From a bacterium (GTDB lineage: Bacteria; CG2-30-53-67; CG2-30-70-394): a stretch of DNA of 64,000 nt. How positions within the stretch are numbered: the stretch's first letter is position 1; each line of letters starts with the position of its first letter. Location: NCBI GenBank assembly GCA_024278555.1, contig JAJRSX010000183.1, forward strand, positions 4,043-68,042. Direction: 5' to 3'. Below the pieces are notes generated by a model that saw nothing but the letters and a program-made list of their open reading frames with translations, was not told the origin of the DNA and did no database searches. Positions 551-52,056 of the stretch are shown here, piece after piece. A program made the translations under genes and the position numbers.

Positions 551-2380
551 ATGTCTAAATATTGGTTGCCAAAAACGCTGCGCTCTCGGCGTGGCATTCT
601 GTTTACCTTCTTGACCGCTTCGATTGCGACGGCGCTGGTGGTGGGCATCGTGTCCGTCCCCAGCCTCGTAGAGGCAAAAAAGAACAAGCTGCGCACCGAG
701 GTCCACCCCGGCGAGCTCGACGACTACTACGGCTTCTTCAGCGGTGGCCACTCGGGCGAGGTGCGGGTCCTCGGCCTGCCCTCCATGCGGCTCTTGAAGC
801 GCATCGCGGTGTTCAACGTCGACACCGGCAGCGGCTGGGGGATCACCAACGAGAGCAAGGCGATGATGGGCGGGATGATCGTCGGCGATACCCACCACTG
901 CCACGGCTCCTACAAGGACGGGACTTACGATGGCAAGTATCTGTGGGTCAACGACAAGGCGAACAACCGCCTCGCCCGCATCCGGCTGGATCTCATGGAG
1001 ACGGACTCGATCATCAAGATCCCCCACGTCCAGGGGACCCACGGCACCTTCCCGCAGCGCTACCCGCAGACCGACTGGGTGGTGGTGAACAGTGAGTTCC
1101 GGACCCCGGTGGACAACGAGGGCAAGGGGAACTTCGAGGATCCGTCCACCTACGGCGGTGTCCACACGATCGTCGATGCCCACAAGATGGAGGTGATCGC
1201 CCAGGTGATCGTGCCGTGCAACCTCGACCTCGCCGGCACCGACTACCAGGGCAAGTACTCCTTTGCCACCTCCTATAACTCCGAGGGGGGCGCCACCATC
1301 TCGCAGATGCTCGCCAGGGATCGGGACTGGCTGGTGGTCTTTAACTGGGACGCGATCAAGCAGGCTCTGAAGAAGGGGAGCTACAAGGTGGTGGACGGGG
1401 TGAAGATGCTCGACGGCAAGCCGGGCACCGGCCTCGCGATCTACATCCCGATCCCCAAGAATCCGCACGGGGTGAACATCAGCCCGGACGGCAAGTACGC
1501 GATCGCCTCGGGCAAGGTCTCGCCGACCGCGAGCGTCATCGCCATTGACAAGCTCGCCGACGCCTTCGCCGGCAAGATCAAGCCGAAGGACTGCATCGTC
1601 GCCGAGCCGCAGATCGGCCTCGGGCCGCTGCACACCACCTTCGACGGCCGCGGCAACGCCTACACCTCGCTGTTCATCGACAGCCAGATCGTCAAGTGGA
1701 ATATCCAGAAGGCGATCGACCTCTACCAGCACCCGAAGGAGGGGGATACGGCGGTGGTCGACCGCCTCGACATCCACTACCAGGTGGGCCACACCATGGC
1801 GTCGATGGCCGAGACCAAGGAGGCGGACGGCAAGTTCCTGGTGTCGCTGAACAAGATCTCCAAGGACCGCTTCCTCAACGTCGGCCCCCTGAAGCCGGAG
1901 AACGACCAGCTCGTCGACATCTCCGGGAAGAAGATGCGGTTGATCGAGGACGAGCCCTCCTACGTGGAGCCCCATGACTGCATCATCGTCCGCCGCGACC
2001 TCGTCGAGCCGCACGTCCTCGATCGGGCGGTGATGGATGAGCACCCCCTGGCGGTGCACAAGAACGCCATTGAGCGCGACGGCAACAAGGTGACCGTCCA
2101 CCTCACCGCCAACGCCCCGGTCTATGGGATGCAGAAGGTTGAGGTAAACGAGGGGGATGAGGTGACCTTTATCGTCACCAACCACGATGAGATCCCCGAC
2201 CTCTCCCACGGCTTCTGCATCTCCGAGTACAACATCAACTTCGTGGTCGGCCCCTTCCAGACGAAGTCGGTGACCTTCACCGCCGACAAGCCGGGGATGT
2301 ACTGGATTTACTGCACCAACTTCTGCCACGCCCTTCACTTGGAGATGCGTCTCCGCCTCTTGGTGAAGGCGAAGGCGTGA
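551..2380 (+). CDS. nosZ: nitrous oxide reductase NosZ
   Basis: 609 aa with the C-terminal CuA motif HGFCISEY...YCTNFCHALHLEM and a His-rich CuZ region (DTHHCHGSYKDG). The N-terminus has RSRRGILF (TAT-like), and an AAGGAG RBS sits 7 bp upstream. Confidence 0.9.
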   Translation: MSKYWLPKTLRSRRGILFTFLTASIATALVVGIVSVPSLVEAKKNKLRTEVHPGELDDYYGFFSGGHSGEVRVLGLPSMRLLKRIAVFNVDTGSGWGITNESKAMMGGMIVGDTHHCHGSYKDGTYDGKYLWVNDKANNRLARIRLDLMETDSIIKIPHVQGTHGTFPQRYPQTDWVVVNSEFRTPVDNEGKGNFEDPSTYGGVHTIVDAHKMEVIAQVIVPCNLDLAGTDYQGKYSFATSYNSEGGATISQMLARDRDWLVVFNWDAIKQALKKGSYKVVDGVKMLDGKPGTGLAIYIPIPKNPHGVNISPDGKYAIASGKVSPTASVIAIDKLADAFAGKIKPKDCIVAEPQIGLGPLHTTFDGRGNAYTSLFIDSQIVKWNIQKAIDLYQHPKEGDTAVVDRLDIHYQVGHTMASMAETKEADGKFLVSLNKISKDRFLNVGPLKPENDQLVDISGKKMRLIEDEPSYVEPHDCIIVRRDLVEPHVLDRAVMDEHPLAVHKNAIERDGNKVTVHLTANAPVYGMQKVEVNEGDEVTFIVTNHDEIPDLSHGFCISEYNINFVVGPFQTKSVTFTADKPGMYWIYCTNFCHALHLEMRLRLLVKAKA

Positions 2381-2483
2381 GCAGAGCCCTGGCGGGATAG
2401 CTGTTTGGGGTGGCCGGTCGGTGGGGCCGGCCACCCCTCCCGCCTCCTTGGTGACGGTCTCTCCCTAACGCGGAAGGTCTCTC

Positions 2484-5400
2484 TTGTATCGCCAGTCCAT
2501 ACGAAGCCTCTTCATTCTCGCCGTACTCGCTCTGGTAGTGCTTGCCCGGGCGGCGTCGGCGCAGATCCTCTTTGGCGAGAAAAAGTACCCGTACGAGCTC
2601 GGTGACGTCCTCCCGGGCGCCGCGGAGTTCGTCGAGCAGGAGGGGTACTGGGAGGCGTATGGGGCGGGCGGCAAAGGCGGCGACCCGGTGGGGTACGTCT
2701 TCCTCTCCGACAACCTGGTGGAGATCCCGGGCTACTCGGGCCACACCCTGAACACCTTGGTGGGGCTCGATCCCACCGGCAAGCTCACCGGCGTAAAGAT
2801 CGTCAGCCACGCCGAGCCGATCGTCCTCATCGGCCTGGACGAGCAGGTGATCCTCGACTTCGTCGCCCAGTACCCGGGCCATGACATTCGCGACCGGATC
2901 CTTATCAGCAACACCCCGAAGAGCGGCTACGTGACCGTGGACGGGATCAGCGGCGCCACGGTCACCGCGGTGGCGGAGAACGCCACCATCCTCAAGGCGG
3001 CGCGGACCGTGGCCAAGCAGGTGGGGATCGTCAAGGCGTCGGAGGTGCGTAGCCGCCGCCCCGCACCGGACTACCGCCCCCTCGACTGGCCGGCGCTGGT
3101 GGCGAACAAGGCGATCGGCCACCTCTCCCTCACCCCGGAACAGCTCCACCGCAGTGGCGACGACTCCACCCTCGACCTCTACTACGCGATCCTCGACGCC
3201 CCGGCGATCGGCCGGAATCTCCTCGGAGAGCGCTACTTCAAGATCGTCCAGGAGCGGGTGGCGCACGATGGGGGGTGCGCCCTCTTCATCGGCGCCCGCG
3301 GCCCGGTCTCCTTCAAGGGGGCGGGGTTTGCCCGCGGCGGCGTCTTCGACCGCTTCTCCCTGGAGCAGCAGGGCGACCTCTTCGTCTTCAAGGACATGGA
3401 TTACGTCAACCACTTCGACCTCCCCATCGAGGGCGGCGTGGAGCTCCATGAGGGGGGGGTCTTCTACATGAAGAACCCCGACTTCGATCCCGCCCAGCCC
3501 TTCACCTTCCACCTCACCCTCCCGTACCGGGTGGGGGACAAGAAGGAGTACGCCACCTTCCTGAGCGACTACGAGCTGCCCGCCGATTTTGTCGAGGAGG
3601 AGGTCCCCTTCTGGGTGACCCGCTGGCACGAGGCGCAGATGGAGGCGGCGGGTCTCGGCCTCTTCCTGATCGCGGCGGCCGCCCTCTTCACCTTCCGCCG
3701 CCGCCTCCTGCCGTACCGCAAGTGGTTCCACCGGTCCATCGCGGTGGTGGCGGTGGTGTGGGTCGGCCTGCTGATGCATGCGCAGCCCTCCACCACCCAG
3801 ATCCTCACCCCGGTCAACGCGGCGGTGCGCGGCAAGTTCCCCTTCGAGATCTTCCTCTCCGAGCCGCTGATCTTCTTGTTCTGGATCGCGATCCTCCTCT
3901 CCCTGCCCCTGTGGGGACGGGGCTTCTTCTGCGGCTGGCTCTGCCCCTACGGGGCGCTTTTGGAGCTCCTCACCACCGTGTGGCACAAGGTCGCACCCAA
4001 GCGGCTGGTGCGGCGCATCGATCGATGGGATCCGGGGCGCCTGTGGCGGTGGGGTAAGTACGCCACCTTCCTGGTGATCCTCGCGGTGGCCTTCGCCTCC
4101 CTGCCGGCGGCGGAGATGCTCGATGAGGTGGAGCCGTTCAAGACCTTCATCCTGCGCCTCGTGCGTCCGTCCCACTTCGTCGCCTACTTTGTCGTGGTCA
4201 CCGTCGGTTCGATGGTCGTCTACCGCGCCTTCTGCCGCTTCCTCTGTCCCCTCGGCGGGGCGCTGGCCCTGGTCTCCTTCAAGCCTCTCGACAAGCTGAA
4301 GCGGTACGAGCACTGCGGGACGTGCCACATCTGCTACAAGGGGTGTGAGCCGAAGGCGATCTCTCACGAGACCGGCCGAATTGACTACCGCGAGTGCCTC
4401 CACTGCTGGGACTGCCAGTCCACCGGTGAGGACCCCGCCCGCTGCCCGGAGCTGATCACCGCGGCCAAGAAGGGGCGGCCGGTGCGCCTCATGCTCCGCG
4501 CCTCGATCCTGGCGCTGTGCCTCGTCGCCACCACCGCGAGCGCGCGCACCTGGCAGGTGGCGCCCGAGGGGCGCCCGCTTGCCAAGACGCTGGCGGCGGC
4601 CGCCGACGGTGACACCGTCGAGGTGGCCGCCGGTCTCTACCGCGGCAACTTCGTGGTGGCGACGCGGATCACCCTCCACGGCGCCGACGGCGCGATCCTC
4701 GACGCCGGCGGTACGGGCCACGTCCTCGGGATCCAGGCGGCGGGGGTGGTGGTGGAGGGGCTCACCCTGCGCAACAGCGGCACCAATTCGGAGCGCTCCG
4801 ACTCGGGGATCTTTCTGGCGCAGTTGGCCGCCGACGTGCGCCTCCTGCACAACCGGGTGGAGCACTGTTGGTTCGGGATCTGGATCCACGGCAGCCCGCG
4901 GCCGGTGCTCATCGGCAACCGCATCGAGGGGATGGCGGAGATGCGGGTGAACGATCGGGGCGACGGGATCCACCTGTGGGACGTGGACGGCGCCGAGATC
5001 CGCGACAACACGGTCGTTGACAGCCGCGACGGCATCTACATGGAGCTGAGCCGCAACTGCCGGATCGTCGGTAACACCATCGAGCGCTCCCGCTACTCGA
5101 TCCACACCATGTGGTGTGACGGCAGCGCTTACAACGAGAACGTGGCGCGGGGCAACTATGTGGGGCTCGCCCTGATGTTCTCCAAGGGGATCGAGGCGCG
5201 CGGCAACACCCTCTACGACAACCGCACCCACGGCATCCTCCTGGTCCAGGATACGCGCAGCGAGATCGTCGACAACCGCCTGATCTCCAACACCAAGGGG
5301 CTGTTCGTCTACAACTCCCTCTACAACAAGATCCGCGGCAACCTGGTCGCTCGCAACCACCTCGGGATGCACTACTGGGGCGGCTCGGAGGACAACGAGG

Positions 5401-5795
5401 TCAACGACAACGCCTTCATCGACAACGAGATCCAGGTAAAGTTCGTCGCCTCTCGCGACCAGCGGTGGGACGGCAACTACTGGAGCGACTACCTCGGCTG
5501 GGACATCGACCGCGACGGCCGCGGCGACGCCCCGTACCTGTCGAACACCCTGGTGGACTCCCTCCTGTGGAGGTACCCGGCGGCGAAGCTCCTGCTCACC
5601 AGCCCCGCCTTCCAACTCCTGGCGGCGGCGGAGCGCGCCTTCCCGGTGATCGCGGTGCCCAAGGGTGAGGACCGGTCGCCGCGCATGGCGCCGATGTTTG
5701 TCGACTGGCAGGGAACCCTCGACCGTTACCCGGAGGTGGCCCACCGGTACTACGGTCACCTCTCGAAGCTGCCCCATATTCCTGGGGGGCACTAA
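2484..5795 (+). CDS. NosR-like (periplasmic FMN-binding domain + TM + 2x4Fe-4S ferredoxin) fused in-frame to NosD (periplasmic parallel beta-helix Cu-insertion protein); TTG start
   Basis: The N-terminal part has the FMN_bind flavinylation motif DGISGATVT, multiple TM helices, CPYGALLEL, and the Cys clusters CGTCHICYKGCEP / CLHCWDCQS. An internal ATG at 4491 begins MLRASILALCLVATTASA (an intact signal peptide) followed by NosD hallmarks: RGDGIHLW, FIDNEIQVKFVASRDQRWDGNYWSDYLGWD, RAFPVIAVP. No stop codon separates the two parts. Confidence 0.75.
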   Translation: MYRQSIRSLFILAVLALVVLARAASAQILFGEKKYPYELGDVLPGAAEFVEQEGYWEAYGAGGKGGDPVGYVFLSDNLVEIPGYSGHTLNTLVGLDPTGKLTGVKIVSHAEPIVLIGLDEQVILDFVAQYPGHDIRDRILISNTPKSGYVTVDGISGATVTAVAENATILKAARTVAKQVGIVKASEVRSRRPAPDYRPLDWPALVANKAIGHLSLTPEQLHRSGDDSTLDLYYAILDAPAIGRNLLGERYFKIVQERVAHDGGCALFIGARGPVSFKGAGFARGGVFDRFSLEQQGDLFVFKDMDYVNHFDLPIEGGVELHEGGVFYMKNPDFDPAQPFTFHLTLPYRVGDKKEYATFLSDYELPADFVEEEVPFWVTRWHEAQMEAAGLGLFLIAAAALFTFRRRLLPYRKWFHRSIAVVAVVWVGLLMHAQPSTTQILTPVNAAVRGKFPFEIFLSEPLIFLFWIAILLSLPLWGRGFFCGWLCPYGALLELLTTVWHKVAPKRLVRRIDRWDPGRLWRWGKYATFLVILAVAFASLPAAEMLDEVEPFKTFILRLVRPSHFVAYFVVVTVGSMVVYRAFCRFLCPLGGALALVSFKPLDKLKRYEHCGTCHICYKGCEPKAISHETGRIDYRECLHCWDCQSTGEDPARCPELITAAKKGRPVRLMLRASILALCLVATTASARTWQVAPEGRPLAKTLAAAADGDTVEVAAGLYRGNFVVATRITLHGADGAILDAGGTGHVLGIQAAGVVVEGLTLRNSGTNSERSDSGIFLAQLAADVRLLHNRVEHCWFGIWIHGSPRPVLIGNRIEGMAEMRVNDRGDGIHLWDVDGAEIRDNTVVDSRDGIYMELSRNCRIVGNTIERSRYSIHTMWCDGSAYNENVARGNYVGLALMFSKGIEARGNTLYDNRTHGILLVQDTRSEIVDNRLISNTKGLFVYNSLYNKIRGNLVARNHLGMHYWGGSEDNEVNDNAFIDNEIQVKFVASRDQRWDGNYWSDYLGWDIDRDGRGDAPYLSNTLVDSLLWRYPAAKLLLTSPAFQLLAAAERAFPVIAVPKGEDRSPRMAPMFVDWQGTLDRYPEVAHRYYGHLSKLPHIPGGH

Positions 5796-5997
5796 TCCAA
5801 GGGAGGTAGGGATTAGGGATGTAGGAAAATAGGGGAGGACAGCCCTTCGGGCTGATAAATATGCTGATGGAAGCCACCCACAAAACAATCATCGTCGGCC
5901 GCAGGCCGGCACCACCCCGATCTCCCTCACCCCTCACCCCTAACCCCTAAACCATGTCCATTGAGCAAATAGAGGCACCTCGTTTCGGGAGCACCCC

Positions 5998-6888
5998 ATG
6001 ATCCGTCTCGAAGCGGTCTCCAAGCGGTACGGCGAGCAGGTCGCCCTGCGCGCCATCGATCTGGAGATCCACCGGGGGGAGTGGCTCGGACTCTTCGGCC
6101 ACAACGGCTCGGGCAAGTCGACCCTCCTGCGCCTGCTGCTCGGCCTCACCCGCCCGACCACCGGGAGCCTGCTCATCGACGGCAAGGCGCCGAGCCCGGC
6201 CGGGTGGCGCCGCCTGCGCGAGCGCATCGGCTTCATGCCGGAGCGCATCGCCTTCTACGACCACCTCACCGGCCGCGAGATCCTCGCCTATTTCGGCCGC
6301 CTGCGCGGCGTCGGCGGGGAGCGGGTGGCGGCGGTCCTGGAGCAGGTGGGGCTGGAGGCGGCGGCGGATCGGCGGTTGGCGGGCTACTCCAAGGGGATGC
6401 GCCAGCGTCTCAACCTCGGCCAGGCCCTCCTCGGCGATCCCGAGATCATCTTCGCCGATGAGCCGGTGGAGGGGCTCGACCCCCAGGGGGTACGCGCCTT
6501 CTTCGACCTCCTCCACGCCGGGCGGGTGGAGACGGTGGTGATGTCGTCGCACCGGCTGGCCGAGTGTAGCCACCGGGTCGACCGTATCTGCGTCCTCAAC
6601 CAGGGGGAGGTGCGGGCACTCGGGTCGGTGGAGGAGCTCAGTCGCGACCTCCACCCCCCGGTCCACGTCCACGTCTACCCCTCCGAGTCCGCCAACGGCT
6701 CCCTCCAGACTACCCTCACCAATCTCGGCGCCACCGACGTGTCGATGCACCAGGGGGCGTGGGTGGCGGAGGTAGCGCAGGGGTCGAAGGTCGCATTCCT
6801 CGCCGGTCTGGCGGGGTGTCAGCCGCAGATCCGCCACCTCCACATCGAGGAGCCGAGCCTCGAGGAGCTCTACTTTGAACACGAGTGA
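5998..6888 (+). CDS. nosF: ABC transporter ATP-binding protein NosF
   Basis: Walker A motif GHNGSGKST, an ABC signature, and position directly after nosD. Confidence 0.8.
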   Translation: MIRLEAVSKRYGEQVALRAIDLEIHRGEWLGLFGHNGSGKSTLLRLLLGLTRPTTGSLLIDGKAPSPAGWRRLRERIGFMPERIAFYDHLTGREILAYFGRLRGVGGERVAAVLEQVGLEAAADRRLAGYSKGMRQRLNLGQALLGDPEIIFADEPVEGLDPQGVRAFFDLLHAGRVETVVMSSHRLAECSHRVDRICVLNQGEVRALGSVEELSRDLHPPVHVHVYPSESANGSLQTTLTNLGATDVSMHQGAWVAEVAQGSKVAFLAGLAGCQPQIRHLHIEEPSLEELYFEHE

Positions 6889-7711
6889 CCAGGTCCTGGC
6901 CATCGCCCGCAAGGAGCTCACCGACCGCCTCCGCAACCGGTGGGTGTGGACGGTCTCCGCCCTCCTCTTCCTCTGTACCGTGGTGATCGCCCTCTTCGGC
7001 GCCGCACCGGTGGGGGTGGTGGGCAACAAGGGGGCGGGTGCGGCCATGGCGAGCCTGATGAACCTGGTGGCCTACCTGGTGCCGCTCATCGCCCTCATCC
7101 TCGGCTGCGGGGCGATCATCGACGAGAAGCAGCGCGGCACCCTCGACCTCATCCTCGTCTACCCCCTGTCGCCGCGGGCCTACTTCGCCGGCACCTTCCT
7201 CGGCTTCACCCTCGCCCTGGCCATCGCGGTGGTGGTGGGCTTCGCCCTCTCCGGCCTGCTGCTCGTCTTCTGGGTGGGGGTCCCCGCTGTCGAGTACCTC
7301 ACCCTCACCGCGCTGGCCCTGCTCCTCGGGACGGCCTTCCTCGCCCTGTCGTTTTTCGTCTCCCTCCTGTCGCGCGAGCGCGGCCGGGCGATCGCCTCGT
7401 CCGTCTTCCTGTGGATCTTCGCGATCTTTGTCTTCGACCTGATCCTCGTGGGGATCCTGGTCCTCTCCGGCGGCAAGGTGCCCGCCTCCCTCTTCGGGGC
7501 GCTGCTCCTCGCCAACCCGGCCGACTGCTTCCGGATCCTCTGCTTCCAGTGGATCGGCAGCGCCGCCACCCCCCTCGGGCTGGCCTCGGTTGCCCCGGCG
7601 GGGCTGCCGGCGCCGCTCCTCCTGGTGATCCTCGCCTTCTGGGTAGTGGTCCCGGTGGTGGCGAGCTACTGGCTCTTTCAACGTCGCGTCGACCGTGACG
7701 CGCTGGTGTGA
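6875..7711 (+). CDS. nosY: ABC-2 type permease NosY
   Basis: A 278-aa polytopic membrane protein that overlaps the nosF stop, occupying the nosDFY position. Confidence 0.7.
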   Translation: MNTSDQVLAIARKELTDRLRNRWVWTVSALLFLCTVVIALFGAAPVGVVGNKGAGAAMASLMNLVAYLVPLIALILGCGAIIDEKQRGTLDLILVYPLSPRAYFAGTFLGFTLALAIAVVVGFALSGLLLVFWVGVPAVEYLTLTALALLLGTAFLALSFFVSLLSRERGRAIASSVFLWIFAIFVFDLILVGILVLSGGKVPASLFGALLLANPADCFRILCFQWIGSAATPLGLASVAPAGLPAPLLLVILAFWVVVPVVASYWLFQRRVDRDALV

Positions 7712-7739
7712 TTTGTGGTTCCTCTTTAAGGAGAAGTCG

Positions 7740-8378
7740 ATGTTCACAGACGCGTGGGTGGTGGCGACGGCGCTGTTGTTGGTGGCGGTGGGTGGGGCGG
7801 AGGCCGGCGAGCTCCACGGCCGGATCGCCACCCCGAGCTGGGGTACGGCGGTGGTGTGGGTGGAGGGGGTCAAGGGCGACGTACCGCACCAGGAGACCCC
7901 CCTCACCCACGTCCGCGGCGGCAAGTTCCGTCCGCACGTGGCGATCGGCTTCGTGGGCAACGACTTCGTCTTCCGCAACAAAGACAACCGGATGCACAAC
8001 ATCCACCTCAACCTCCGCCTCGCCCGCCACGAGGCGGTCTCGGGTCGATCGCTCCTCTATGGGGCCACCCTCTACAACATCGCCCTGCCGGCGGGGAGCA
8101 AGTCGGTGCGGCGGCCGATCAAGGAGAGCTTTCGCTACCGTGACGAGACCGGCTTCATCGAGGTGACCTGCGACCCGCACCCGCGCGAGCGGGCCTTCAT
8201 CCTCGTCTTCGCCCACCCCTTCGCGGCGGTGACCGCGGAGGACGGCACCTTCTCCATCCCTGGCGTCCCCGCGGGGCGCCACCCGGTGCGCTACTGGCAG
8301 GGAGGGAAGGTGGCCGACGGGGGGGTGGTGGAGGTGGGCGCGTCGGGGGTGACGGAGGTGGTGGTGGGCAAGGAGTAG
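7740..8378 (+). CDS. hypothetical periplasmic protein (Sec signal peptide ...GGAEA), occupying the NosL position in the nos cluster but lacking the NosL motif
   Basis: ATG with an AAGGAG RBS. The signal peptide is MFTDAWVVATALLLVAVGGAEA. The protein has only one Cys and no recognisable copper motif. Confidence 0.45.
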   Translation: MFTDAWVVATALLLVAVGGAEAGELHGRIATPSWGTAVVWVEGVKGDVPHQETPLTHVRGGKFRPHVAIGFVGNDFVFRNKDNRMHNIHLNLRLARHEAVSGRSLLYGATLYNIALPAGSKSVRRPIKESFRYRDETGFIEVTCDPHPRERAFILVFAHPFAAVTAEDGTFSIPGVPAGRHPVRYWQGGKVADGGVVEVGASGVTEVVVGKE

Positions 8379-10748: not shown

Positions 10749-10867
10749 GCCGACGGGGGGGGCGCAGGAGGCATGCGTCACAGTGGCGAGGGAGGTCGTG
10801 GGCTGGAATGCGGGGCTCGCGCGAAGGCGCGAAGGGCGGTGGGGCCGATGGGTGGGGTGCCTCCGCT

Positions 10868-11036
10868 CTAGGAGTCTGTCGGACTTTGGCGATCGTCGCG
10901 AGGGGAAGCGGGCCCGAGTTCGGATTGTGACCCGTTCGAGGAGCATAGTGGGCCTATGCGACGAAGAACGGGGCGCGATCCGGGCCGAGATCCGCTTTCC
11001 CGCAGTAGATCGGGCCAAAATCCGACAGACTCCTGG
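10868..11036 (-). mobile_element. MITE-like repeat copy A (TIR AGGAGTCTGTCGGA), reverse orientation relative to copies B/C
   Basis: About 170 bp bounded by inverted repeats. The internal sequence is the reverse complement of the core shared with copies B and C (GATCTACTGCGGGAAAGCGGATCTCGGCCCGGATCGCGCCCCG). Confidence 0.7.
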
Positions 11037-11205
11037 GGCTGGGGATTGGGCTGGGGCTTGAAAGGGGGGGCCAGTTACAAGGGCGCGAAGAGGGGGAGAT
11101 CCTCCCCGTGATATGGGAGGGGTGGGGGGAGTAGGGTGGGGAGATTGGAGGTGGAGGCGGGGGCTGAGGGGCAGCGGATGGGGCAGGGCGGACAGGGGTG
11201 GTGAT

Positions 11206-13619
11206 ATGGGGTGCGAGAGCTTTGATGGATTGTTCCGGCGGGCCACTGGCTTCGAGGAGCCATTCGGCTATCAACAGCGACTTGCCTGCGATTACGGGGC
11301 GGACGATTTCCCGGAGCTGGTGGATGTTCCCACCGGGTTGGGCAAGACGGCGGCAGTGGTGTTGGCGTGGCTGTGGCGGCGCCGGTTTCATCCGGATCGC
11401 GCGGTGCGCAACGCGACTCCACGGCGCTTGGTCTATTGCCTCCCGATGCGGGTGTTAGTGGAGCAGACCCACGACAACGTTGTCGCGTGGCTGGACCGTC
11501 TCGGCCTTCACGGCGAAGCGGGAGAGGGCAAGGTCTCCGTTCATCTCCTCATGGGCGGCGAGGACGACCTCCGTTCGTGGGCGGACTACCCCGAGGAGGA
11601 GATGGTCCTCATCGGTACCCAGGACATGTTGCTCTCTCGGGCACTGATGCGCGGCTACGGTATGAGCCGCTACCAATGGCCAGTCCACTTTGCCCTCCTG
11701 CACAACGATGCCCTGTGGGTTCTGGATGAGGTGCAGCTCATGGGGCCGGGGCTGGCCACCGCCTGCCAGCTTGAAGGGTTGCGGCGACGTCATGCGACAG
11801 CGCGGCCGGCGGCGACTCTGTGGGTTTCCGCTACCTTGCACCGTGACTGGCTCAGCACGGTCGATCTGCGGCCTCATCTGGACGGCTTCTCCATCCACCG
11901 AGTGAGCGGCGAGGAGATTGGTCACGACGCCATCCGAGAACGGTGTGAGGCGACAAAGACGATCGCGGCGGCATCTGTGAGTGCCCCAGCGCAGGCGGCT
12001 ACACAGGCGGGTACACGCGCCTACGTTCAGGCCCTCGTCGAAGAAGTTGCCGCTCGACACAAGCCTGGCTCCACCACCCTGGTTGTGGTCAACACCGTGG
12101 GCCGAGCGCAGGCGGTGTACACCGCCCTCGGCAAGGCAGGTGTTACGGCGGACCGGTTGCTGGTCCACGGCCGATTTCGTCCGTCAGAGAGGCGGCGTGC
12201 AAACGAAGCTCTGCGTGAGGAGCCGGGCCACGACGGTCGCATCATCGTTGCCACCCAGGCAGTGGAAGCGGGGGTCGACCTCACCAGCCGCACCCTCTTC
12301 ACCGAGCTTGCGCCGTGGTCTTCCCTGGTTCAGCGGTTCGGTCGCTGCAATCGGTACGGAGAAGAGGCGGAGGCACACATCTATTGGATCGATCTCGATG
12401 AGACCAAGCTCGCCCCGCCGTATGAGGCCGAAGAGCTGGCGCGGGCGCGCGCGGTGGTGGAACAGCTTTCCAGTGCTAGCCCAGTGGACCTGCCCCCGGT
12501 CTCCGGCGACCGGCCCCTCTACCCGGTCCTGCGCGACAAGGACCTCCTCGACCTCTTCAATACCGACTCCGACCTGTCGGGCTTCGATGTCGATGTCTCC
12601 CCCTACATCCGCGACGCCCAGACCACCGACCTGCGTGTCTTCTGGCGCGACCTTTCCGCCGGCGTGGACGGCCAGCCGCGGCCGGAACGCGACGAGCTCT
12701 GCACCTGCCCGGTGGGGGAGGTGGCGGCATACCTCAAACGGATCGCCAAGGATGGCGGCCGTGTCTACCTCTGGGATGGGCTCGGCGAGCGGTGGGCTCC
12801 CCTGTCCGGGCGGCCCCGCCCCGGCGTGGTCCTGATGCTCGATGCCGCCCGTGGCGGTTACGACGAGGGGCTCGGTTTCGCCAGTGGAGCGAAGAGGCCG
12901 GTGGCTCCCGTGGTGTCGCCCGACGTTTCGGTTCCGGAGACTTACGGTGGAGACACACGTAGCCACCTCACTGAACCGATCCCTCTCACGGATCACATCG
13001 GCCACGTAGCAGCGGTGACAGCCCAACTTGGTCGGGTGGTCGGGGCCGATGGAGACACTGAAGCCGTGTGCCGGGCCGCTGCCTGGCACGACGTGGGCAA
13101 GGCCCACGAGGTGTTTCAGCAGACCCTGACCCGTTGCCCACGGATGACCGACCGCCCCGGCGGTCCGTGGGCCAAATCACCCTGTGGTGGTCGCCACGCC
13201 CGCCCCTACTTCCGCCACGAGCTCGCCTCGGCCCTTGCCTGGCTCGCCCACCATGGTGACGAACCAGAGGCCGACCTGGTCGCGTACCTCATCGCCGCCC
13301 ACCACGGGCGGGTGCGCATGGGGATTCGTGCCCTGCCCGGCGAGAAAGAGCCGCCTGGGCCCGGTCGCCGTTTTGCCCGCGGCATCTGGGAAGGTGACGA
13401 CCTGCCGGCGCTCGTGCTCAACGACGGCGAGAGACTGCCGGCCATCCGGCTTGACCTCCACCTGATGGAGCTAGGCACCGGGCCTCAGGGCCATTCATGG
13501 ACAGCTCGCACCCAGGGACTGCTGGCGCGCTTCGGTCCCTTCCATCTCGCCTGGCTAGAGAGCCTGGTGCGCGTCGCCGACTGGCGCGCCTCGCGCGTCG
13601 AGCAGGAGGAGGAGCTGTC

Positions 13620-13623
<4 letters not shown>
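11206..13623 (+). CDS. cas3: Cas3 helicase with C-terminal HD nuclease domain (type I-G/I-U architecture)
   Basis: DEAD/DEAH helicase motifs (VPTGLGKTA, VLDEVQLMG), a helicase C region, and C-terminal HD motifs (AAWHDVGKAHEVF, AAHHGRV). ATG at 11206, though the ORF is open from 11113. Confidence 0.85.
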
Positions 13624-16729
<3,106 letters not shown>

Positions 16730-16730
16730 G

Positions 16731-18257
16731 ATGGTCGCCATTGCCTTCCGCTTCCCTGGGGGGCGCTACCACGCCACCCCCTGGGGACGCCATGTGAACG
16801 AGGCGGCAGTGGCGTGGCCGCCGGAGCCGTGGCGCATCGTCCGCAGCCTCATCGCCATCTGGCACCGCAAGACCGACCACGACGTCTATTCCGAGGAGGC
16901 GCTGACCTCGCTGCTCGCGGCGCTGGCGCGGGGGGAGCCGGTCTACCGTCTCCCCGAAGCAACCCATGCCCACACTCGCCACTACATGCCTGTGCGCTCG
17001 GGTCGGCAGGACAAGAACACCTTGATCTTCGACGCCTTCGTTCGTTTGGCGCCTGAGGCCGAGTTGGTGGTGGCCTGGCCCTCTGTCGACCTCGACGCCA
17101 ACCAAACCACGCTCCTCGACGCCCTCCTCACACCCCTCGGTTATCTCGGGCGCGCCGAGAGCTGGGTGGAGGCTCGGCGGCTGGAGGTGTGGGAGGGAGA
17201 ACCTAACTGTGTCCCTGGAGAAGAATCTGTCGATCCGGAGACCGGCGAGATCCTCGGTGAACCGGTACTCCTCCATCTGCCACAGACTCCCGATGACTAT
17301 CACCAGTTTCGCGTGCGAATGCTGGCAGGGCTTGAAGACTGCGAGTTGAAGCCACGAGAGCGCCAACGCGTCGAGGCGACCCTCCCCGAGGCGTGGCTCG
17401 CGGCGGTCTCGCTGGATACCTCCGACCTCCAGGCTGCCGGTTGGAGCGCGCCTCCGGCCGCGCGGCTCGTCCACTACCTGCGTCCTGAGACGGCTCTCCA
17501 GCCCATGGCCTCTCCCCAACCAAAACCGTCTCGCCCGTCAGCCGCCCCCACCACCGCTCGCTTCGCCCTTTACGGCCGCCCCCTGCCGCCCATGGAAGAT
17601 GCGGTGAAGGTGGGTGAGTGGCTGCGATGGGGGATCATGGGTAAGGCAAAACGGCTGTTGGGAGAGAATCGCATTCCACCGGAACTTGCCGGCCACAACG
17701 GCGGTCGCCCCGCCGAGGGACACGGTCATGCCTTTTTTCTCCCCGAGGACGTGGACGGCGACGGCCGTATCGACCACGTCGCCATTCACGTCCCCGGTGG
17801 GCTGTCGCCAGACGGATGCCGAGTGGTGGCCGCGTTGCGCCGTTTGTGGACGCGGGAGGGGCACGAGTGGCAGATCATTCTCGAAGCCCTGGGTGATGGG
17901 CCAGCGCTGGCGACGGCCACGCCACTGTTCGGCGAGAATCAGACCTGGCTTTCCGTCACCCCCTACCTACATCCGTGGCACGTGAAGAGGCGGTTCACTG
18001 TGGCGGACCAACTCCTCCGGGAGTGCGGCGAGCGGGGTCTTCCCGAGCTGTCGACGGTTGAGGCGATCCCCACGGTGCAGGTCGGTTCCCGCTCTCGCCA
18101 CGCCGTCCACTTCCACCGCTTCCGCGCTAAGCGCGGTCTCACCCAGCCGGACACCCACGGCTCTTTCTGGCGCCTCACCTTCGCCGAGCCCATCACCGGC
18201 CCCCTCGCCCTCGGCTTCGCCTGCCACTTCGGCCTCGGTCTGTTTCGCCCCGAGTAG
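16731..18257 (+). CDS. csb2: Csb2 (Cas5-Cas6 fusion, type I-G)
   Basis: The N-terminus FRFPGGRYHATPWGRHVNEAAVAWPPEPWRIVRSL fits GSU0054-family Cas5/6. Confidence 0.8.
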   Translation: MVAIAFRFPGGRYHATPWGRHVNEAAVAWPPEPWRIVRSLIAIWHRKTDHDVYSEEALTSLLAALARGEPVYRLPEATHAHTRHYMPVRSGRQDKNTLIFDAFVRLAPEAELVVAWPSVDLDANQTTLLDALLTPLGYLGRAESWVEARRLEVWEGEPNCVPGEESVDPETGEILGEPVLLHLPQTPDDYHQFRVRMLAGLEDCELKPRERQRVEATLPEAWLAAVSLDTSDLQAAGWSAPPAARLVHYLRPETALQPMASPQPKPSRPSAAPTTARFALYGRPLPPMEDAVKVGEWLRWGIMGKAKRLLGENRIPPELAGHNGGRPAEGHGHAFFLPEDVDGDGRIDHVAIHVPGGLSPDGCRVVAALRRLWTREGHEWQIILEALGDGPALATATPLFGENQTWLSVTPYLHPWHVKRRFTVADQLLRECGERGLPELSTVEAIPTVQVGSRSRHAVHFHRFRAKRGLTQPDTHGSFWRLTFAEPITGPLALGFACHFGLGLFRPE

Positions 18258-18391
18258 CCTCATCTTCTCGGTAACCTCCATGCCCTCCCTCGCTTCGTGG
18301 TGAAAAGACCGTGTAAATCCTTCACGACTACGAGGGTCGGTCCATCCGCCTGACGGACGAGCGCCTCGCCCATGTCTTGGAGCATCCGGAG

Positions 18392-18625
18392 ATGGTCGGG
18401 ATGGAGGCGGCGACCGAGGAGACCTTGGTGAAGCCGGAAGCGGTGGTCGGGTCGTTCAGCGACGAGACAGCCCATCTGTACTACCGTTTCTATGTGGGTA
18501 CCCGGGTCGGCGATAAGTACGTTTGTGTGGTGGTCAAGGTCGTTTCGGACGACGCCTTTGTGCTGACCGCGTATCTCACGGACAAGACGAAGAAGGGAAC
18601 GCAGATATGGCCAAACGAAACGTGA
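18392..18625 (+). CDS. DUF4258-like putative toxin; the conserved domain extends upstream of the first ATG into a frame closed by TAA at 18314-16 with no canonical start, so it is possibly decayed
   Basis: ...HLYYRFYVGTRVGDKYVCVVVKVVSDDAFVLTAYLT matches the DUF4258 C-terminal pattern. The upstream in-frame IRLTDERLAHVLEHPEM also fits the family but lacks ATG/GTG (only TTG at 18377). Confidence 0.4.
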   Translation: MVGMEAATEETLVKPEAVVGSFSDETAHLYYRFYVGTRVGDKYVCVVVKVVSDDAFVLTAYLTDKTKKGTQIWPNET

Positions 18626-18807
18626 AGATCTGGTACGACGCCGAAGGGGATTACCTGGAGGTGATCTACGATCAGCGGTCGGGCTATTTCCGTGAAACGG
18701 CTGCCGACCAGGTGACGGAGAAGGTGGATGAGGAGGGGGAGATTCTCGGGTTCTCCGTGTTACGGGTGAGCTCGTTGACGCGGAGCCCCCTGGAGGTGGC
18801 GCTCTGA
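18607..18807 (+). CDS. DUF2283 family protein (putative antitoxin partner)
   Basis: MAKRNVKIWYDAEGDYLEVIY...GEILGFSVL fits the DUF2283 signature. It overlaps the preceding gene's stop. Confidence 0.55.
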   Translation: MAKRNVKIWYDAEGDYLEVIYDQRSGYFRETAADQVTEKVDEEGEILGFSVLRVSSLTRSPLEVAL

Positions 18808-18832
18808 CGTCTCGCCGACGTGGGGCCGTAGG

Positions 18833-19033
18833 ATGATTGTGAAAATCACCTACGACAAAGAGGCGGACGCCCTCTACATTCGGCTGCTCGATGGGCATCA
18901 CGAGTGCCGGAATCTCGGAAGATCGAGTGTCCGATGGCCAGGTAGCTTGGGTCCCGGGTGTGTCCGTCGCGCGAGTCGTTCAGTCGCGGCCAGGTCCGTG
19001 CCGATCCGTAGAGAACTTTGTTTCTTTCGGTGA
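18833..19033 (+). pseudogene. second DUF2283 copy, truncated or frameshifted after ~21 aa
   Basis: MIVKITYDKEADALYIRLLDG matches the DUF2283 consensus almost perfectly, after which the frame degenerates into low-complexity Arg/Ser sequence. Confidence 0.35.
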
Positions 19034-19042
19034 GGTGCGGAA

Positions 19043-20788
19043 ATGGAAGCTGCCGACTCTGATGGCCGTGCGGGACGGGCGGGTGGGCCCGCGTCTCCCC
19101 CGCAGATCCCGGTGCGGATGCTCAACGAGTTCACCTACTGCCCGCGGTTGGGCTACCTCATGTGGGTCGACTCCGAGTGGGCGGATAGCCACCACACGGT
19201 GGAGGGACGGTGGCGCCACAAGCGGGTAGACAAGGCCCCGACCGAGGGGTTGCCCGAGGCAGACGGTACGCGCGATGAGCCGTTGCACGTGCGCTCGGTC
19301 AACCTGGGGAGTGAGCGGCTCGGCCTGGTGGCGAAGCTGGACGTGGTCGAGGCGGATGGCGAGACGGCCACCCCGGTGGACTACAAGCGAGGCAAGCGTC
19401 CCAAGGTCGAGGGTGGCGCGTATGACCCGGAGCGGGTCCAGCTCTGCGCCCAGGGGCTGTTGCTCCGCGAGCACGGTTATCGTTCGGAGGAGGGGGTCCT
19501 CTACTACGTCGGCTCGAAGGATCGGGTCACCGTCCCCTTCGATGATGACCTGGTCGCCTTGACCATGCGTCAGATCGAGCTCTTTGGGTTGGCGGCAGCG
19601 GCACCTCAGGCGCCGCCGCCGCTGGCCGACTCTCCCAAGTGTCCGTACTGCTCCCTGGTGGGAATTTGCCTGCCTGATGAGACCCGGATGCTGGCGCAAG
19701 AGACGACGGCGGATGCCGGCGACAACGGCAACGGCTCGAAGCCGGCACGCCATCGACCGCGACGTCTCCTGCCGGCGAGTGTCGATGCCCTGCCCCTCTA
19801 CGTCACCACCCAGGGGGCATACGTGGGAAAGAAACAGGAGGTACTGGTGATCAAGGAAAAGGGCGCCGTGGTGGCGGATGCGCGTATTCGCCACACCTCA
19901 CAGGTTGCCCTCTTCGGGAATGCTCAGGTCTCCACTCAGGCGCTGCGGGAGCTGTGCCGGAGGGGCATCCCGATCACCTACTTCTCCTCCGGCGGCTACT
20001 TCTACGGACTCAGCCATGGCATGAGCCACAAGAACGTGGGGTTGCGTATCGCCCAGTACGACACCGCGCGCAGGCCATCCCGTTGTCTCGACCTTGCCCG
20101 CCGTTTCGTGGCCGGAAAGATTGCCAACAGTCGCACGCTCCTGCGTCGCAACCATCGGAGCAAGCCGGAGGCAGAGCTCCGAGCACTCGCCCAATTGTTG
20201 CAGGAGGCGGAGGGCGCTGCTTCACTTCAGACACTCCTCGGTGTCGAGGGAATGGCCGCCCGAACCTATTTCGGTCGCTTCGGCGATCTACTCCGTCCCC
20301 CGGCCGGTGGTGATCCGGGGTTCGATTTCGAGCACCGCAACCGCCGTCCCCCGAGGGATCCGGTCAACGCCATGCTCTCCTTCGGCTACGCCCTCCTCAC
20401 GCGTGATTGGACCGTGACCCTGCTTTCCGTCGGTTTCGACCCCTATCTCGGTTTCTACCACCAGCCGCGCTACGGCCGTCCCGCCCTGGCGTTGGACATG
20501 ATGGAGGAGTTCCGCTCGTTGATCGTCGACTCTGTAGTGATATCAGCCATCAATAACGGTGAGCTCGGGGAGCCCGACTTCGTTCACGCCACCGGCGCGG
20601 TTGCCATGAGCACTCGTGGTCGTAAGGCCTTTCTTGCTGCGTACGAGAGGCGTCTTGCCCAGGAGATTTCCCACCCCGTGTTTGGCTACCGTATCAGCTA
20701 CAGGCGTATCTTTGAGGTACAAGCGAGACTACTCGCCCGAGTCATTCAAGGGGAAATTCCGGAGCTCCCCGCCTTTCGTCCGAGGTGA
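19043..20788 (+). CDS. cas1: Cas4-Cas1 fusion protein (probable true start ATG 19118)
   Basis: The N-terminal Cas4 part has MLNEFTYCPRLGY and the Fe-S Cys cluster CPYCSLVGICLPDE. The C-terminal Cas1 part has LPLYVTTQGAYVGKKQEVLVIKEKG. Confidence 0.85.
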   Translation: MEAADSDGRAGRAGGPASPPQIPVRMLNEFTYCPRLGYLMWVDSEWADSHHTVEGRWRHKRVDKAPTEGLPEADGTRDEPLHVRSVNLGSERLGLVAKLDVVEADGETATPVDYKRGKRPKVEGGAYDPERVQLCAQGLLLREHGYRSEEGVLYYVGSKDRVTVPFDDDLVALTMRQIELFGLAAAAPQAPPPLADSPKCPYCSLVGICLPDETRMLAQETTADAGDNGNGSKPARHRPRRLLPASVDALPLYVTTQGAYVGKKQEVLVIKEKGAVVADARIRHTSQVALFGNAQVSTQALRELCRRGIPITYFSSGGYFYGLSHGMSHKNVGLRIAQYDTARRPSRCLDLARRFVAGKIANSRTLLRRNHRSKPEAELRALAQLLQEAEGAASLQTLLGVEGMAARTYFGRFGDLLRPPAGGDPGFDFEHRNRRPPRDPVNAMLSFGYALLTRDWTVTLLSVGFDPYLGFYHQPRYGRPALALDMMEEFRSLIVDSVVISAINNGELGEPDFVHATGAVAMSTRGRKAFLAAYERRLAQEISHPVFGYRISYRRIFEVQARLLARVIQGEIPELPAFRPR

Positions 20789-20790
20789 CC

Positions 20791-21081
20791 ATGAAACGCG
20801 ACTATCTTGTCACCTACGACATCTGCGACGACAGGCGTCTGCGCCGCACATTCGAGGCCGTAAAGGGTTTCGGCCTCCACCTGCAGTACTCGGTTTTTCT
20901 CTGCTCACTCACACAGCGGCAACACATGGAGCTGCTTGCAATCCTGGATGAGATCATCCACCATCGTGAAGATCAAGTGATGGTGATCGACCTTGGTCAA
21001 TCCGGCTCGCGATTCAATCCCCGAATTGCCACACTCGGCAAACCCGGCCCGGATGCCACCGACAAGCCCATCATCATTTGA
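20791..21081 (+). CDS. cas2: Cas2
   Basis: A ~96-aa protein with KRDYLVTYDICDDRRLRRTFEAVKGFGLHLQYSVFLC typical of Cas2, lying directly upstream of the leader/array. Confidence 0.8.
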   Translation: MKRDYLVTYDICDDRRLRRTFEAVKGFGLHLQYSVFLCSLTQRQHMELLAILDEIIHHREDQVMVIDLGQSGSRFNPRIATLGKPGPDATDKPIII

Positions 21082-21264: not shown

Positions 21265-22241
21265 ATTTCCGCAGCGTTAACGCTGCGGCCCCATTGAAGC
21301 TTGCGGATGATCTTGAACGCATGGCGACGCGGCAGATTTCCGCAGCGTTAACGCTGCGGCCCCATTGAAGCATTGCGACCTCCTCTTCAGAGCGCTTCTT
21401 TTTAGCGATTTCCGCAGCGTTAACGCTGCGGCCCCATTGAAGCAGCCCTCAGCGGGAGGGAGATTCGCAAGTTTTCCGGGATTTCCGCAGCGTTAACGCT
21501 GCGGCCCCATTGAAGCCAGGCGGGATTTGGTAGAAACGAATGAGGTCGTCACATTTCCGCAGCGTTAACGCTGCGGCCCCATTGAAGCGTGGCGTGGGTC
21601 ACGGCGGCGGCGGTGCTCTGCCTCGTTACCGCAGCGTTAACGCTGCGGCCCCATTGAAGCCGAGGAGCGGCACAAAGACGGGCGCACGTTCTATTTTATT
21701 TCCGCAGCGTTAACGCTGCGGCCCCATTGAAGCCCGACCGCGACAGTCTCAGCACGCCCCGCGCGGCCATATTTCCGCAGCGTTAACGCTGCGGCCCCAT
21801 TGAAGCTACGCAGTAGTCATAAGAGATCGACATCCCTAGCGTAATTTCCGCAGCGTTAACGCTGCGGCCCCATTGAAGCCCACGTCCTTCGACATGGACT
21901 TCGTCGTTGAGTTGATTTCCGCAGCGTTAACGCTGCGGCCCCATTGAAGCTCTAGGGCTGCTTTCGACGAGGTTCTGAAACTCCTCGCATTTCCGCAGCG
22001 TTAACGCTGCGGCCCCATTGAAGCGATCCATTGATTCCCACCCATGAGATTGCTCCATCTCATTTCCGCAGCGTTAACGCTGCGGCCCCATTGAAGCTCC
22101 AGCGGCAAGGTGGGGGACGGAGTCTACGGGTATGATTTCCGCAGCGTTAACGCTGCGGCCCCATTGAAGCACCCACTTCACTTCCCCCGCCACGGTTTTT
22201 TTGGTATTTCCGCAGCGTTAACGCTGCGGCCCCATTGAAGC
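21265..22241 (+). CRISPR. CRISPR array, 14 repeats / 13 spacers
   Basis: The 36-bp repeat ATTTCCGCAGCGTTAACGCTGCGGCCCCATTGAAGC has a palindromic core CCGCAGCG-TTAA-CGCTGCGG. Spacers are 35-38 bp. Repeat 6 (21625-21660) is a variant (GTTACC... instead of ATTTCC...). Confidence 0.95.
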
Positions 22242-25582: not shown

Positions 25583-25802
25583 GCGCTCGCTACGCTCGCG
25601 GGGATGGGGGGCGGGGGATGGGGGGTGAGGGGGTGGATGGCCGCTGCGCGGCCACCGATGGCGTGTGGTGGATGGCTCTCATCGTCGTCTCACGTGGCCC
25701 GAAGGGCCAACCATTCCCCCATCCCTCACCCCCCATCCCCGGGACAGGATCGCATCCAGGGAATGGAGAGCCGCCCCGGGGGGCGGTCAACCCCGGGCCG
25801 CT

Positions 25803-27719
<1,917 letters not shown>

Positions 27720-27961
27720 GCTCTCTCCTTGGTTCGTCGGTCGGATGCAAAAAGGTCTACGGGGTCAATGCTTGAACGGGAGCGAGACGGTCATCCGCCG
27801 CTCCCGCAATGGAATATGGGGACGCTCGGGTGGAGGCGCTACCCCCCGGCTCGCGGCGCGAGTTCGGGGGCTCTCAGCTTTTCGTTTTCAGCAACCGGCT
27901 TTCAGCGCACGGCGCTTCGAGTCGACTCCGTAGGTGTCGCGTGGTCGTCGCCGGAAGGGGC

Positions 27962-28543
27962 TCACTTCCGGCACACCAACACCATCGACGGGCGCAGGAG
28001 GCGGTCGTGGAGGAGGTAGCCGCGTTGGAGCTCATCGGCCACCTGGCCCGCCTCCACCGTGTCCGAGGCGGTCTCGCCGACCGCCTCGTGGAGGTTCGGG
28101 TCGAAGGGGGCGCCCACCGCCTCGATCGGGGTGACCCCGTGGCGCTTGAGGGTGTCGAGGAGCAGCTTGAGGGTCATCTCCACCCCGGTCGCCAGGGCGG
28201 CGTCGGCGTCCGCCGCGGCACCCTCGTTGTGGTGGGCCAGGGCGCGTTCCAGGTTGTCCACCGACTCTAGGAGGTCGCGTGCCAGCTTCTCGTTGGCGTA
28301 GCGCATGAATTCCGCCTTCTCCCGGGCGGTACGCTTTTTGTAGTTGTCGAGCTCGGCGCTCACCCGCAGGAGCCGTTCGTAGGTCTCCCGGGCCTGGCGC
28401 TCGATCTCCTCCTCGCGCGACGGCGCGGTCTCGTCGTCGTTCACCGCGGTGACCTCGATGTCCGGCATCCCCTCGGCGGCCACGTCGAGGGTCTCGGGGG
28501 TGAGGTCACTCTCTTCGTCACTCGGCTTTGGCTGGGTGCTCAT
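27962..28543 (-). CDS. grpE: nucleotide exchange factor GrpE
   Basis: A GrpE-like coiled-coil plus a C-terminal beta domain. It overlaps the hrcA stop and is in operon order hrcA-grpE-dnaK-dnaJ. Confidence 0.85.
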   Translation of the reverse strand: MSTQPKPSDEESDLTPETLDVAAEGMPDIEVTAVNDDETAPSREEEIERQARETYERLLRVSAELDNYKKRTAREKAEFMRYANEKLARDLLESVDNLERALAHHNEGAAADADAALATGVEMTLKLLLDTLKRHGVTPIEAVGAPFDPNLHEAVGETASDTVEAGQVADELQRGYLLHDRLLRPSMVLVCRK

Positions 28544-51961: not shown

Positions 51962-52056
51962 GGAGCGGTTCGTTTTCTGGTTGATCCTCACGGTGGATTC
52001 CTTTCTGAAAGGGTACGGCTGGAAGGTGAACGAGAGAAGAGCCGGTACTTGGTTCT

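Follow-up and report, generated by a model that had tools for sequence, protein, structure and literature searches.

We analyzed a 64,000-nt stretch of bacterial DNA (the window; contig JAJRSX010000183.1 of assembly GCA_024278555.1), in which a type I-G CRISPR-Cas operon holds a gap of 785 nt between the end of csb2 (18257), the last effector gene, and the start of the fused cas4/cas1 gene (19043). The cassette in this gap is probably a copy of a widespread mobile, type II-like toxin-antitoxin (TA) module that was captured by the operon and that bears late lesions in the window. Three parts were identified: a toxin-like gene with a stop at its second codon, an intact gene for a 66-aa DUF2283 protein (named A66), and the 5′ remnant of a second DUF2283 gene (named A74). 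A first-pass annotation had described positions 18260-19040 as a decayed TA-like insert. The sequence features it listed are present there and the capture by the operon is supported, while the erosion it proposed turns out to be confined to the window copy.

The stop at codon 2 of the toxin-like gene

The toxin-like gene (18311..18625, + strand) comprises 104 codons with a nonsense codon at position 2, and belongs to a family with a BECR (Barnase-EndoU-ColicinE5/D-RelE) fold that resembles PBECR2 and DUF4258. A GTG (18311-18313) is followed by TAA (18314-18316), an open body (18317-18622) and a terminal TGA (18623-18625), and a Shine-Dalgarno-like GGTGA (18299-18303) is located 7 nt upstream of the GTG. 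The frame reads M-stop-I-L-H-D-Y, against a family pattern of M-[KR]-[IVL]-[LI]-HDY, and the closest cas-linked relatives start with GTG AAG ATG or with GTG or ATG followed by AAG ATC. As had been noticed in the first pass, the conserved N-terminus lies upstream of the canonical starts, with the GTG directly before the TAA, and the window copy is left without a usable start. Products from the next canonical in-frame starts, TTG 18377 and ATG 18392, would be 77-82 aa long and would lose the invariant D4, R11, E15, R16, and H19. The "77-aa hypothetical protein" of the deposited annotation, the only product called for this gene, is such a truncated form.

The other 102 codons are unbroken and keep every invariant residue of the family. 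One unusual substitution in the body, I33T (18413-18415, numbered in the 102-codon frame), is unique among 119 relatives. We infer from this layout that the toxin function of the window copy has been lost. For the toxin to be still functional, which we consider unlikely, the TAA would have to be an assembly or consensus error or a minority allele, or full-length initiation would have to persist at a low level, by a start at ATC 18317 or by re-initiation after the GTG-TAA mini-ORF; the module would then be a working addiction or abortive-infection unit and no pseudogene. The intact body, the retained GGTGA motif, and the metagenome-type assembly of the contig are in line with this, but the deposited record has the same sequence, gene callers gave only the 77-aa product, and no comparable truncation occurs among the other top 119 family members. 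The change of codon 2 from AAG to TAA requires two base changes, so a single miscall is ruled out, and ATC is a very poor initiation codon. The dN/dS of the toxin gene against its orthologue is as low as that of csb2 (see below), yet this is equally expected from a stop that is merely recent.

Toxin family and predicted fold

A database search returned 1659 relatives of the toxin, and 103 of the 119 best are exactly 104 aa long. The first 20-25 residues (ILHDYEGRSIRLTDERLAHVLEHPEM) form the most conserved stretch across the 1659 matches, and the invariant R11, E15, R16, H19, K67, and Y86 are candidate catalytic residues. In the Pfam scan, the window ORF gave no match to PF14076 (DUF4258); its sole relevant match is to PBECR2 (PF18810), with 14.4 bits against a gathering score of 27.1, and its residues 2-88 align to profile positions 17-104, which cover most of the domain. 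Among 25 family members tested, PBECR2 was matched by all 25 (best E 1.9e-6) and DUF4258 by 20 (best E 2.6e-4), always sub-threshold, so that the gathering threshold of neither family is reached; a precomputed PF18810 match is present on some relatives. These profile comparisons place the family between PBECR2 and DUF4258 within the BECR fold. The DUF4258-like label of the first pass holds at the level of the BECR superfamily but fails as a family assignment, given the absence of a PF14076 match. Scans of the three ORFs in the gap against NCBIfam, PADLOC, and PHROGs yielded nothing, or only matches with E > 0.04.

The AlphaFold model of the toxin (25 sequences, pLDDT 85.7) consists of two N-terminal helices packed on an antiparallel sheet. 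Around 25 of its top 30 structural neighbours are BECR toxins, and the model shows the BECR topology, which assigns the protein to a known toxin fold. DUF4258 itself has been placed in the colicin-like BECR branch or in the RelE/ParE superfamily, with its target unknown (bioRxiv 10.64898/2026.08.28.747851; PMC11980606).

The DUF2283 genes A66 and A74

The presumed antitoxin gene A66 (18607..18807, + strand) opens at ATG 18607 and overlaps the toxin gene by 19 nt. As the first-pass annotation held, it is an intact DUF2283 ORF: its product matches PF10049 with 24.5 bits over profile positions 1-49, above the gathering score of 23. The A66 family comprises 1672 matches, nearly all of 66 aa and annotated as DUF2283 or YuzE. 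The A66 model shows a simple unit of five beta strands; it has no recognisable DNA-binding domain, and none of its structural neighbours is informative. The window protein carries F21Y (18667-18669) and M37T (18715-18717), at two positions with a conservation of 90% or more across the family, which hints at an early relaxation of constraint, though the changes are too few to tell. The DUF2283 label has also been used for FseA/QseM, regulators of integrative and conjugative elements (PMC4755241), which may or may not be related to the present proteins; a functional study of the toxin/A66 pair was not found in the literature on DUF2283, YuzE, and COG5428.

Downstream of A66, Pfam matching and alignment with L003, a contig carrying the orthologous operon, revealed a 5′ remnant of A74 (18833..18916, + strand), which retains about 26 codons of a 74-aa DUF2283 gene. 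The remnant scores 24.9 bits against DUF2283 through residues 4-21 and profile positions 1-18 only, and is 77% identical to residues 1-26 of the A74 protein of L003. The ORF from ATG 18833 stays open up to 19033, through sequence that has no relationship to the DUF2283 family; about 130 nt separate its DUF2283-like part from the cas4/cas1 start. The colinearity between the window and L003 stops at 18912. The first pass had rightly seen a second DUF2283 copy that follows the consensus and then breaks off, but had attributed the break to a shift of frame. A frameshift was ruled out, as neither the other two frames nor tblastn show a continuation, and residues 27-74 of A74 have no match in any frame of the window.

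Directly upstream of cas4/cas1, alignment with L001, L003, and L087 delimits a conserved leader and ribosome-binding region (18990..19042, + strand). These ~55 nt before the cas4/cas1 start (GCCGATCCGTAGAGAAC...GGTGAGGTGCGGAA) are common to the three contigs, the sequences further upstream differ, and the stretch could serve the adaptation module as a conserved leader or regulatory site. Because residues 27-74 are absent and colinearity resumes at this leader, a deletion has taken the rest of A74 and everything up to the cas4/cas1 leader. The ORF at 18833 should accordingly be annotated as a deletion remnant.

The toxin/A66 pair as a mobile module

A survey of one genome per species returned 80 loci of the toxin gene, and in all 80 it is followed directly by an A66 homologue that overlaps or abuts it. 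The loci span Nitrospirota, Acidobacteriota, Cyanobacteria, Proteobacteria, Verrucomicrobiota, Planctomycetota, Chloroflexota, and Actinobacteria, and I-G cas genes were found within 10 kb of none of them. The pairing in 80/80 loci across phyla without nearby I-G cas genes identifies the pair as a mobile two-gene module. Its spread is patchy, at 60-80% identity across phyla, and relatives at 81-84% identity adjoin a DDE transposase or other TA genes (HepT, CopG/BrnA-type). Two small, adjacent, co-oriented and overlapping genes that are conserved as a pair correspond to the generic description of a type II TA system, and the two family sizes run in parallel (1659 toxin and 1672 partner matches, counted as clusters at 90% identity). 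From gene order and co-occurrence alone, we infer an antitoxin role for the DUF2283 protein. A general tie of the toxin family to CRISPR-Cas was ruled out, with 0/80 loci cas-linked and the close relatives located elsewhere.

The GC content of the cassette is 56-59%, compared with 63-70% in the flanking cas genes. Together with the 80 cas-free pairs, this supports a foreign origin of the cassette in the operon and bears out the capture of a TA-type cassette that the first pass had proposed. That the pair is no TA system, but for example a small regulator pair or an anti-defence or anti-CRISPR-associated pair with a non-catalytic BECR-like protein, is highly improbable: BECR toxins dominate the structural neighbours, and the other properties are all hallmarks of type II systems, namely the strict overlapping two-gene unit, the patchy cross-phylum spread, the TA and transposase neighbours, and a decay that begins with the toxin. 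These data define a very large module (a 104-aa BECR protein and a 66-aa DUF2283 protein, with ~1,650 clusters each) that occurs in many phyla and is experimentally uncharacterised, and the strict pairing gives DUF2283 a concrete candidate role as antitoxin or immunity partner.

Cassette copies in related type I-G operons

A protein 88% identical to the window toxin was found on contigs of three kinds. L003 and L005 carry the orthologous operon, which is colinear with window positions 11260-18912 (from cas3 onwards) at 81% identity. The cassette of L003 is intact, with a properly started toxin gene, A66, and then the full 74-aa A74 (53.8 bits against DUF2283); it is followed by a DUF2283 remnant, a Phd antitoxin gene, a truncated PIN gene, a cas4 5′ stub, a 76-aa ORF, and cas4/cas1. 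The dN/dS ratios between the window and L003 are 0.141 (toxin), 0.106 (A66), 0.144 (csb2), and 0.127 (csb1), and dS is similar across genes (0.44-0.68). Because the colinear orthologous operon holds the cassette and the dS values are similar, the cassette was already at the junction in the common ancestor, and the low ratios indicate that it is inherited with the operon under purifying selection.

The first-pass annotation regarded the module as eroding, a view that would fall if the insert were found intact and with proper starts in relatives. This is what we observed: L003/L005, L001, and L006 hold the cassette at the same junction with the start GTG-AAG-ATG. Erosion therefore applies to the window copy (its codon-2 stop and its right-side deletion), and the module is not generally eroding; the stop is most likely recent and specific to the window lineage. 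Dating the nonsense mutation from branch-specific substitutions was tried and dropped, as the changes are too few.

The 856-nt cassette shows 98.5-98.8% identity among L001, L003, and L006, three contigs with effector modules that share no further relationship in their DNA. The variant I-G operon of L001 has csb1-csb2 ahead of a 1391-aa Cas3 fusion. In loci with another gene than csb2 upstream, the cassette is preceded by a 3′ end of csb2, of 234 nt in L006 (9707-9941) and of ~50 nt in L001 (9894-9941). The same ~50-nt stub stands before the cassette in L167 (1218-1270), a contig that lacks cas genes and encodes a DDE transposase (2357-4090), and its left boundary is identical in L001 and L167 (window ~18204-18210). 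That these csb2-like 50 nt are part of the mobile unit itself was ruled out, as cassette-less Csb2 proteins align to the C-terminus of the window Csb2, up to residues 505-508. The upstream stretches are thus true csb2 stubs, which indicates that a cas-embedded cassette was carried into other contexts; it appears to have moved again with the stub attached.

L001 and L003 share 94.7% identity over their adaptation modules. The full-length cas4/cas1 of L003 (from 12918) shows the same 94.7% identity to that of L001 and 78% to that of the window, while the 112-aa ORF at L003 11797-12135 is a cas4/cas1 5′ stub that is 91% identical to the 5′ end of the window cas4 (100% over 48 nt). The stub is closer to the gene of the window, which indicates that the adaptation module of L003 was replaced. 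The csb2 and cas4 stubs and the near-identical cassette across operons are thereby sequence traces of module exchange at this junction.

Two further ORFs of these contigs are absent from the window. L001 holds a second 66-aa DUF2283 gene (10809-11009) with 92% DNA identity to the first and no adjoining toxin gene. A conserved 76-aa ORF (L001 11037-11267, equivalent to L003 12135-12365) lies directly before cas4/cas1 and gave no match in a Pfam scan.

The csb2-cas4/cas1 junction in other type I-G loci

An unbiased sample of 80 metagenomic I-G loci was collected via Cas4/1 (47-79% identity). The cassette is present in only one of them, L089, a fragment of the L003 type. The csb2 gene stands directly before cas4/cas1 in 27 sampled loci; 23 of these have gaps of at most 269 nt, and four hold other TA genes. 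The uninterrupted gene order that the first pass took as canonical for type I-G is therefore valid for most loci but not for these four. L094 (1348-1703) and L096 (7535-7843) contain HicA (24 bits, sub-threshold) and HicB (46 bits) on the opposite strand, L091 (4418-5087) contains a Phd-like gene (sub-threshold) and HicB, and L098 (1991-2739) contains MNT (45 bits) and HEPN (72 bits). Inserts of at least 400 nt were found at none of 55 junctions inside the effector module. The distribution is suggestive of a recurrent landing or recombination site for TA genes at the csb2-cas4/cas1 junction of type I-G loci.

A functional tie of the cassette to CRISPR-Cas, which is compatible with the capture of a mobile TA module, is rather doubtful. 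The cassette could provide addiction to the cas locus or its adaptation module, an abortive-infection backstop in which the toxin-to-antitoxin ratio would follow transcription of the cas operon, or regulated expression of cas4/1-cas2. It has been kept at one junction under purifying selection over a dS of about 0.5, but TA modules maintain themselves by addiction and need no host function for this, and the window operon has apparently tolerated the loss of the toxin. The cassette moves together with the adaptation module into operons with other effector genes, while none of the 80 genome copies is cas-linked and close relatives are found within TA islands or next to a transposase. TA genes of unrelated families stand at this junction in other I-G lineages, but 23 of the 27 related loci have no insert, and the HicAB genes of L094 and L096 are on the strand opposite to the operon. 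The window cassette is on the same strand as the cas genes with no terminators, and the vapBC pairs of Sulfolobales offer a precedent (see below); set against this, no CRISPR-repeat-like element links the cassette to Cascade.

A stronger version, in which the TA cassettes at the junction are selected, travel with cas4/1-cas2-array, addict the cells, and supply homology for swaps of the adaptation module, we regard as distinctly unlikely. If true, it would explain the near-identical cassette and the csb2 stubs before cas4/1 in three operon architectures, as well as the displaced cas4 stub of L003 and the unrelated TA families at the junction.

Other arrangements were observed in front of cas4/cas1. 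In L143, the space between csb2 and cas4/cas1 (4633-7947) is taken up by a CRISPR array, whose repeats appear as reiterated peptides in all frames, along with a small HNH-like ORF (6785-7084). The operons of L087, L102, L105, and L166 are I-G-like with cas3 as the last recognisable effector gene, and each has a 310-470-aa ORF before cas4/cas1 (6132-7550, 6933-7862, 6980-7933, and 4844-5839, respectively). These ORFs share an N-terminal G-x-x-NPLGFLAALG-type motif reminiscent of Csx17; the L102 ORF has no Pfam match. L087 also holds a PIN remnant just before cas4/cas1.

The type I-G locus of the window

The type I-G CRISPR-Cas locus of the window is complete and lies on the + strand; it was identified by NCBIfam equivalogs that all score above their cut-offs, by Pfam for Cas2, and by a repeat search for the array. 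The first gene of the operon, cas3g (11113..13623; TIGR02621, 828 bits), encodes the helicase/nuclease. It is followed by csx17/cas8g (ORF 13497..15779; TIGR04113, 705 bits, matched from residue 46), whose true start is probably near 13620 according to the L003 gene calls (719 aa), and by csb1/cas7g (ORF 15560..16729; TIGR02570, 134 bits), which probably starts at 15776 by comparison with L003 (317 aa). The effector genes end with csb2 (cas5/6g; 16731..18257; TIGR02165, 169 bits). Downstream of the cassette, the adaptation module consists of the cas4g/cas1g fusion (19043..20788; NF049935, 787.5 bits) and cas2 (20785..21081; PF09827, 59.9 bits), all on the + strand, and the CRISPR array (21265..22241, +) contains 14 copies of the 36-nt repeat ATTTCCGCAGCGTTAACGCTGCGGCCCCATTGAAGC at a spacing of 71-74 nt.

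Promoter-like or terminator-like sites were found nowhere between 18100 and 19200. The cassette is probably co-transcribed with the operon, because it lies on the cas strand with no terminator. A minus-strand ORF over the cassette (18260-18901, 213 aa) was regarded as a GC-rich shadow ORF. The locus is flanked by ordinary chromosomal genes (transglutaminase-like, AhpC/TSA, deaminase, dnaK). A plus-strand ORF at 25665-28019 (784 aa) matches PF10712, "NAD-specific glutamate dehydrogenase", with 604 bits; it is antisense to dnaK (25803-27719, - strand; HSP70, 912 bits) and is therefore a shadow ORF and no gene. A 1350-aa ORF at 48107-52159 (- strand) with nine DUF4215 repeats and three DUF7467 domains is unconnected with the cassette.

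Proposed history of the cassette

Based on the sequence comparisons above, we consider it probable that the operon captured a widespread mobile TA module, and that the window copy was damaged late. The first gene would encode a 104-aa BECR-fold (RelE/colicin-like) toxin, presumably an RNase, and the second gene, linked to the first by translational coupling, a 66-aa DUF2283 protein, presumably one that binds and neutralises the toxin. The module would have landed between the effector module (cas3-csx17-csb1-csb2) and the adaptation module (cas4/1-cas2-array) in an ancestor common to the window and at least one other lineage, where it was probably transcribed along with the cas operon and afterwards passed down with it under purifying selection. 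Most likely, it is a passenger of a selfish or addictive kind, which is kept by addiction and whose stabilising effect on the locus, if any, would be incidental. In the window lineage, two late lesions probably followed, the AAG to TAA change at toxin codon 2 and the deletion of the 3′ two-thirds of the orphan gene A74 with everything up to the cas4/1 leader. Loss of the toxin with retention of the antitoxin would be the expected first step in the decay of a TA module.

Several observations weigh against this history. The codon-2 stop could be an assembly error or a population variant, as the contig is metagenome-derived. The changes on the window branch, three synonymous and four non-synonymous, are too few to show relaxed constraint. 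The toxin profile, A66, and A74 had no relatives in sequence searches among solved structures, and no characterised family member and no toxicity or neutralisation experiment was found in the literature searched. The enrichment of inserts at the junction (2/20 versus 0/55, p = 0.07, in the strict subset) is suggestive only, and the near-identical HicB sequences of L091, L094, and L096 may reflect one event.

Comparison with known systems

The closest described arrangement is that of the DUF4258/DUF2283 pairs (PF14076 overlaps Ntox49), in which, as in the window, a small BECR-fold toxin-like gene is followed by an overlapping DUF2283 gene; a bona fide pair of this kind (84 and 74 aa, with a 4-nt overlap) is present in L001 at 640-1115. 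In contrast to these pairs, the window toxin has no PF14076 match and its relatives reach it at best sub-threshold, and its partner belongs to a distinct, sharply conserved 66-aa subfamily that barely passes the DUF2283 threshold. PBECR2, a phage-associated BECR nuclease domain of the same fold class, is the best Pfam match of all family members tested. PBECR domains have mostly been described as parts of large phage polyvalent or MuF proteins (bioRxiv 10.64898/2026.08.28.747851), whereas the present toxin is a stand-alone protein of 104 aa with a dedicated partner gene, and scores below the PBECR2 threshold in the window. The toxin-first gene order is shared with the type II systems BrnTA and HigBA, but the partner is an all-beta DUF2283 protein without a recognisable DNA-binding domain, and the toxins are only 9-16% identical.

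Addiction elements within cas loci are known from two other settings. CreTA is a CRISPR-regulated RNA toxin-antitoxin that guards cas genes (PMC10097628, PMC9458426), and like the window cassette it is an addiction-type element within a type I cas locus. Its RNA genes are controlled by a degenerate CRISPR repeat and Cascade, while the window holds two protein genes and no repeat-like sequence. A CreTA-like RNA module was accordingly rejected: the best ungapped repeat match in 18200-19100 is 18/36, at a background mean of 18.7 and a maximum of 21, and an Rfam search of the cassette gave no match.

In Sulfolobales, vapBC and other TA pairs are interspersed in cas cassettes and have been proposed to help maintain CRISPR-Cas (PMC4390879). 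As in the present case, these are protein TA genes placed between cas modules; they can be multi-copy and partly decayed, and are linked with module exchange. The window differs in being a bacterial type I-G locus with another TA family, inserted specifically at the csb2-cas4/1 junction. No new defence mechanism is indicated; TA genes between cas modules are of an already known kind and the events are ordinary. Collectively, these comparisons add bacterial type I-G to the cases in which TA genes accumulate between the functional modules of cas loci.

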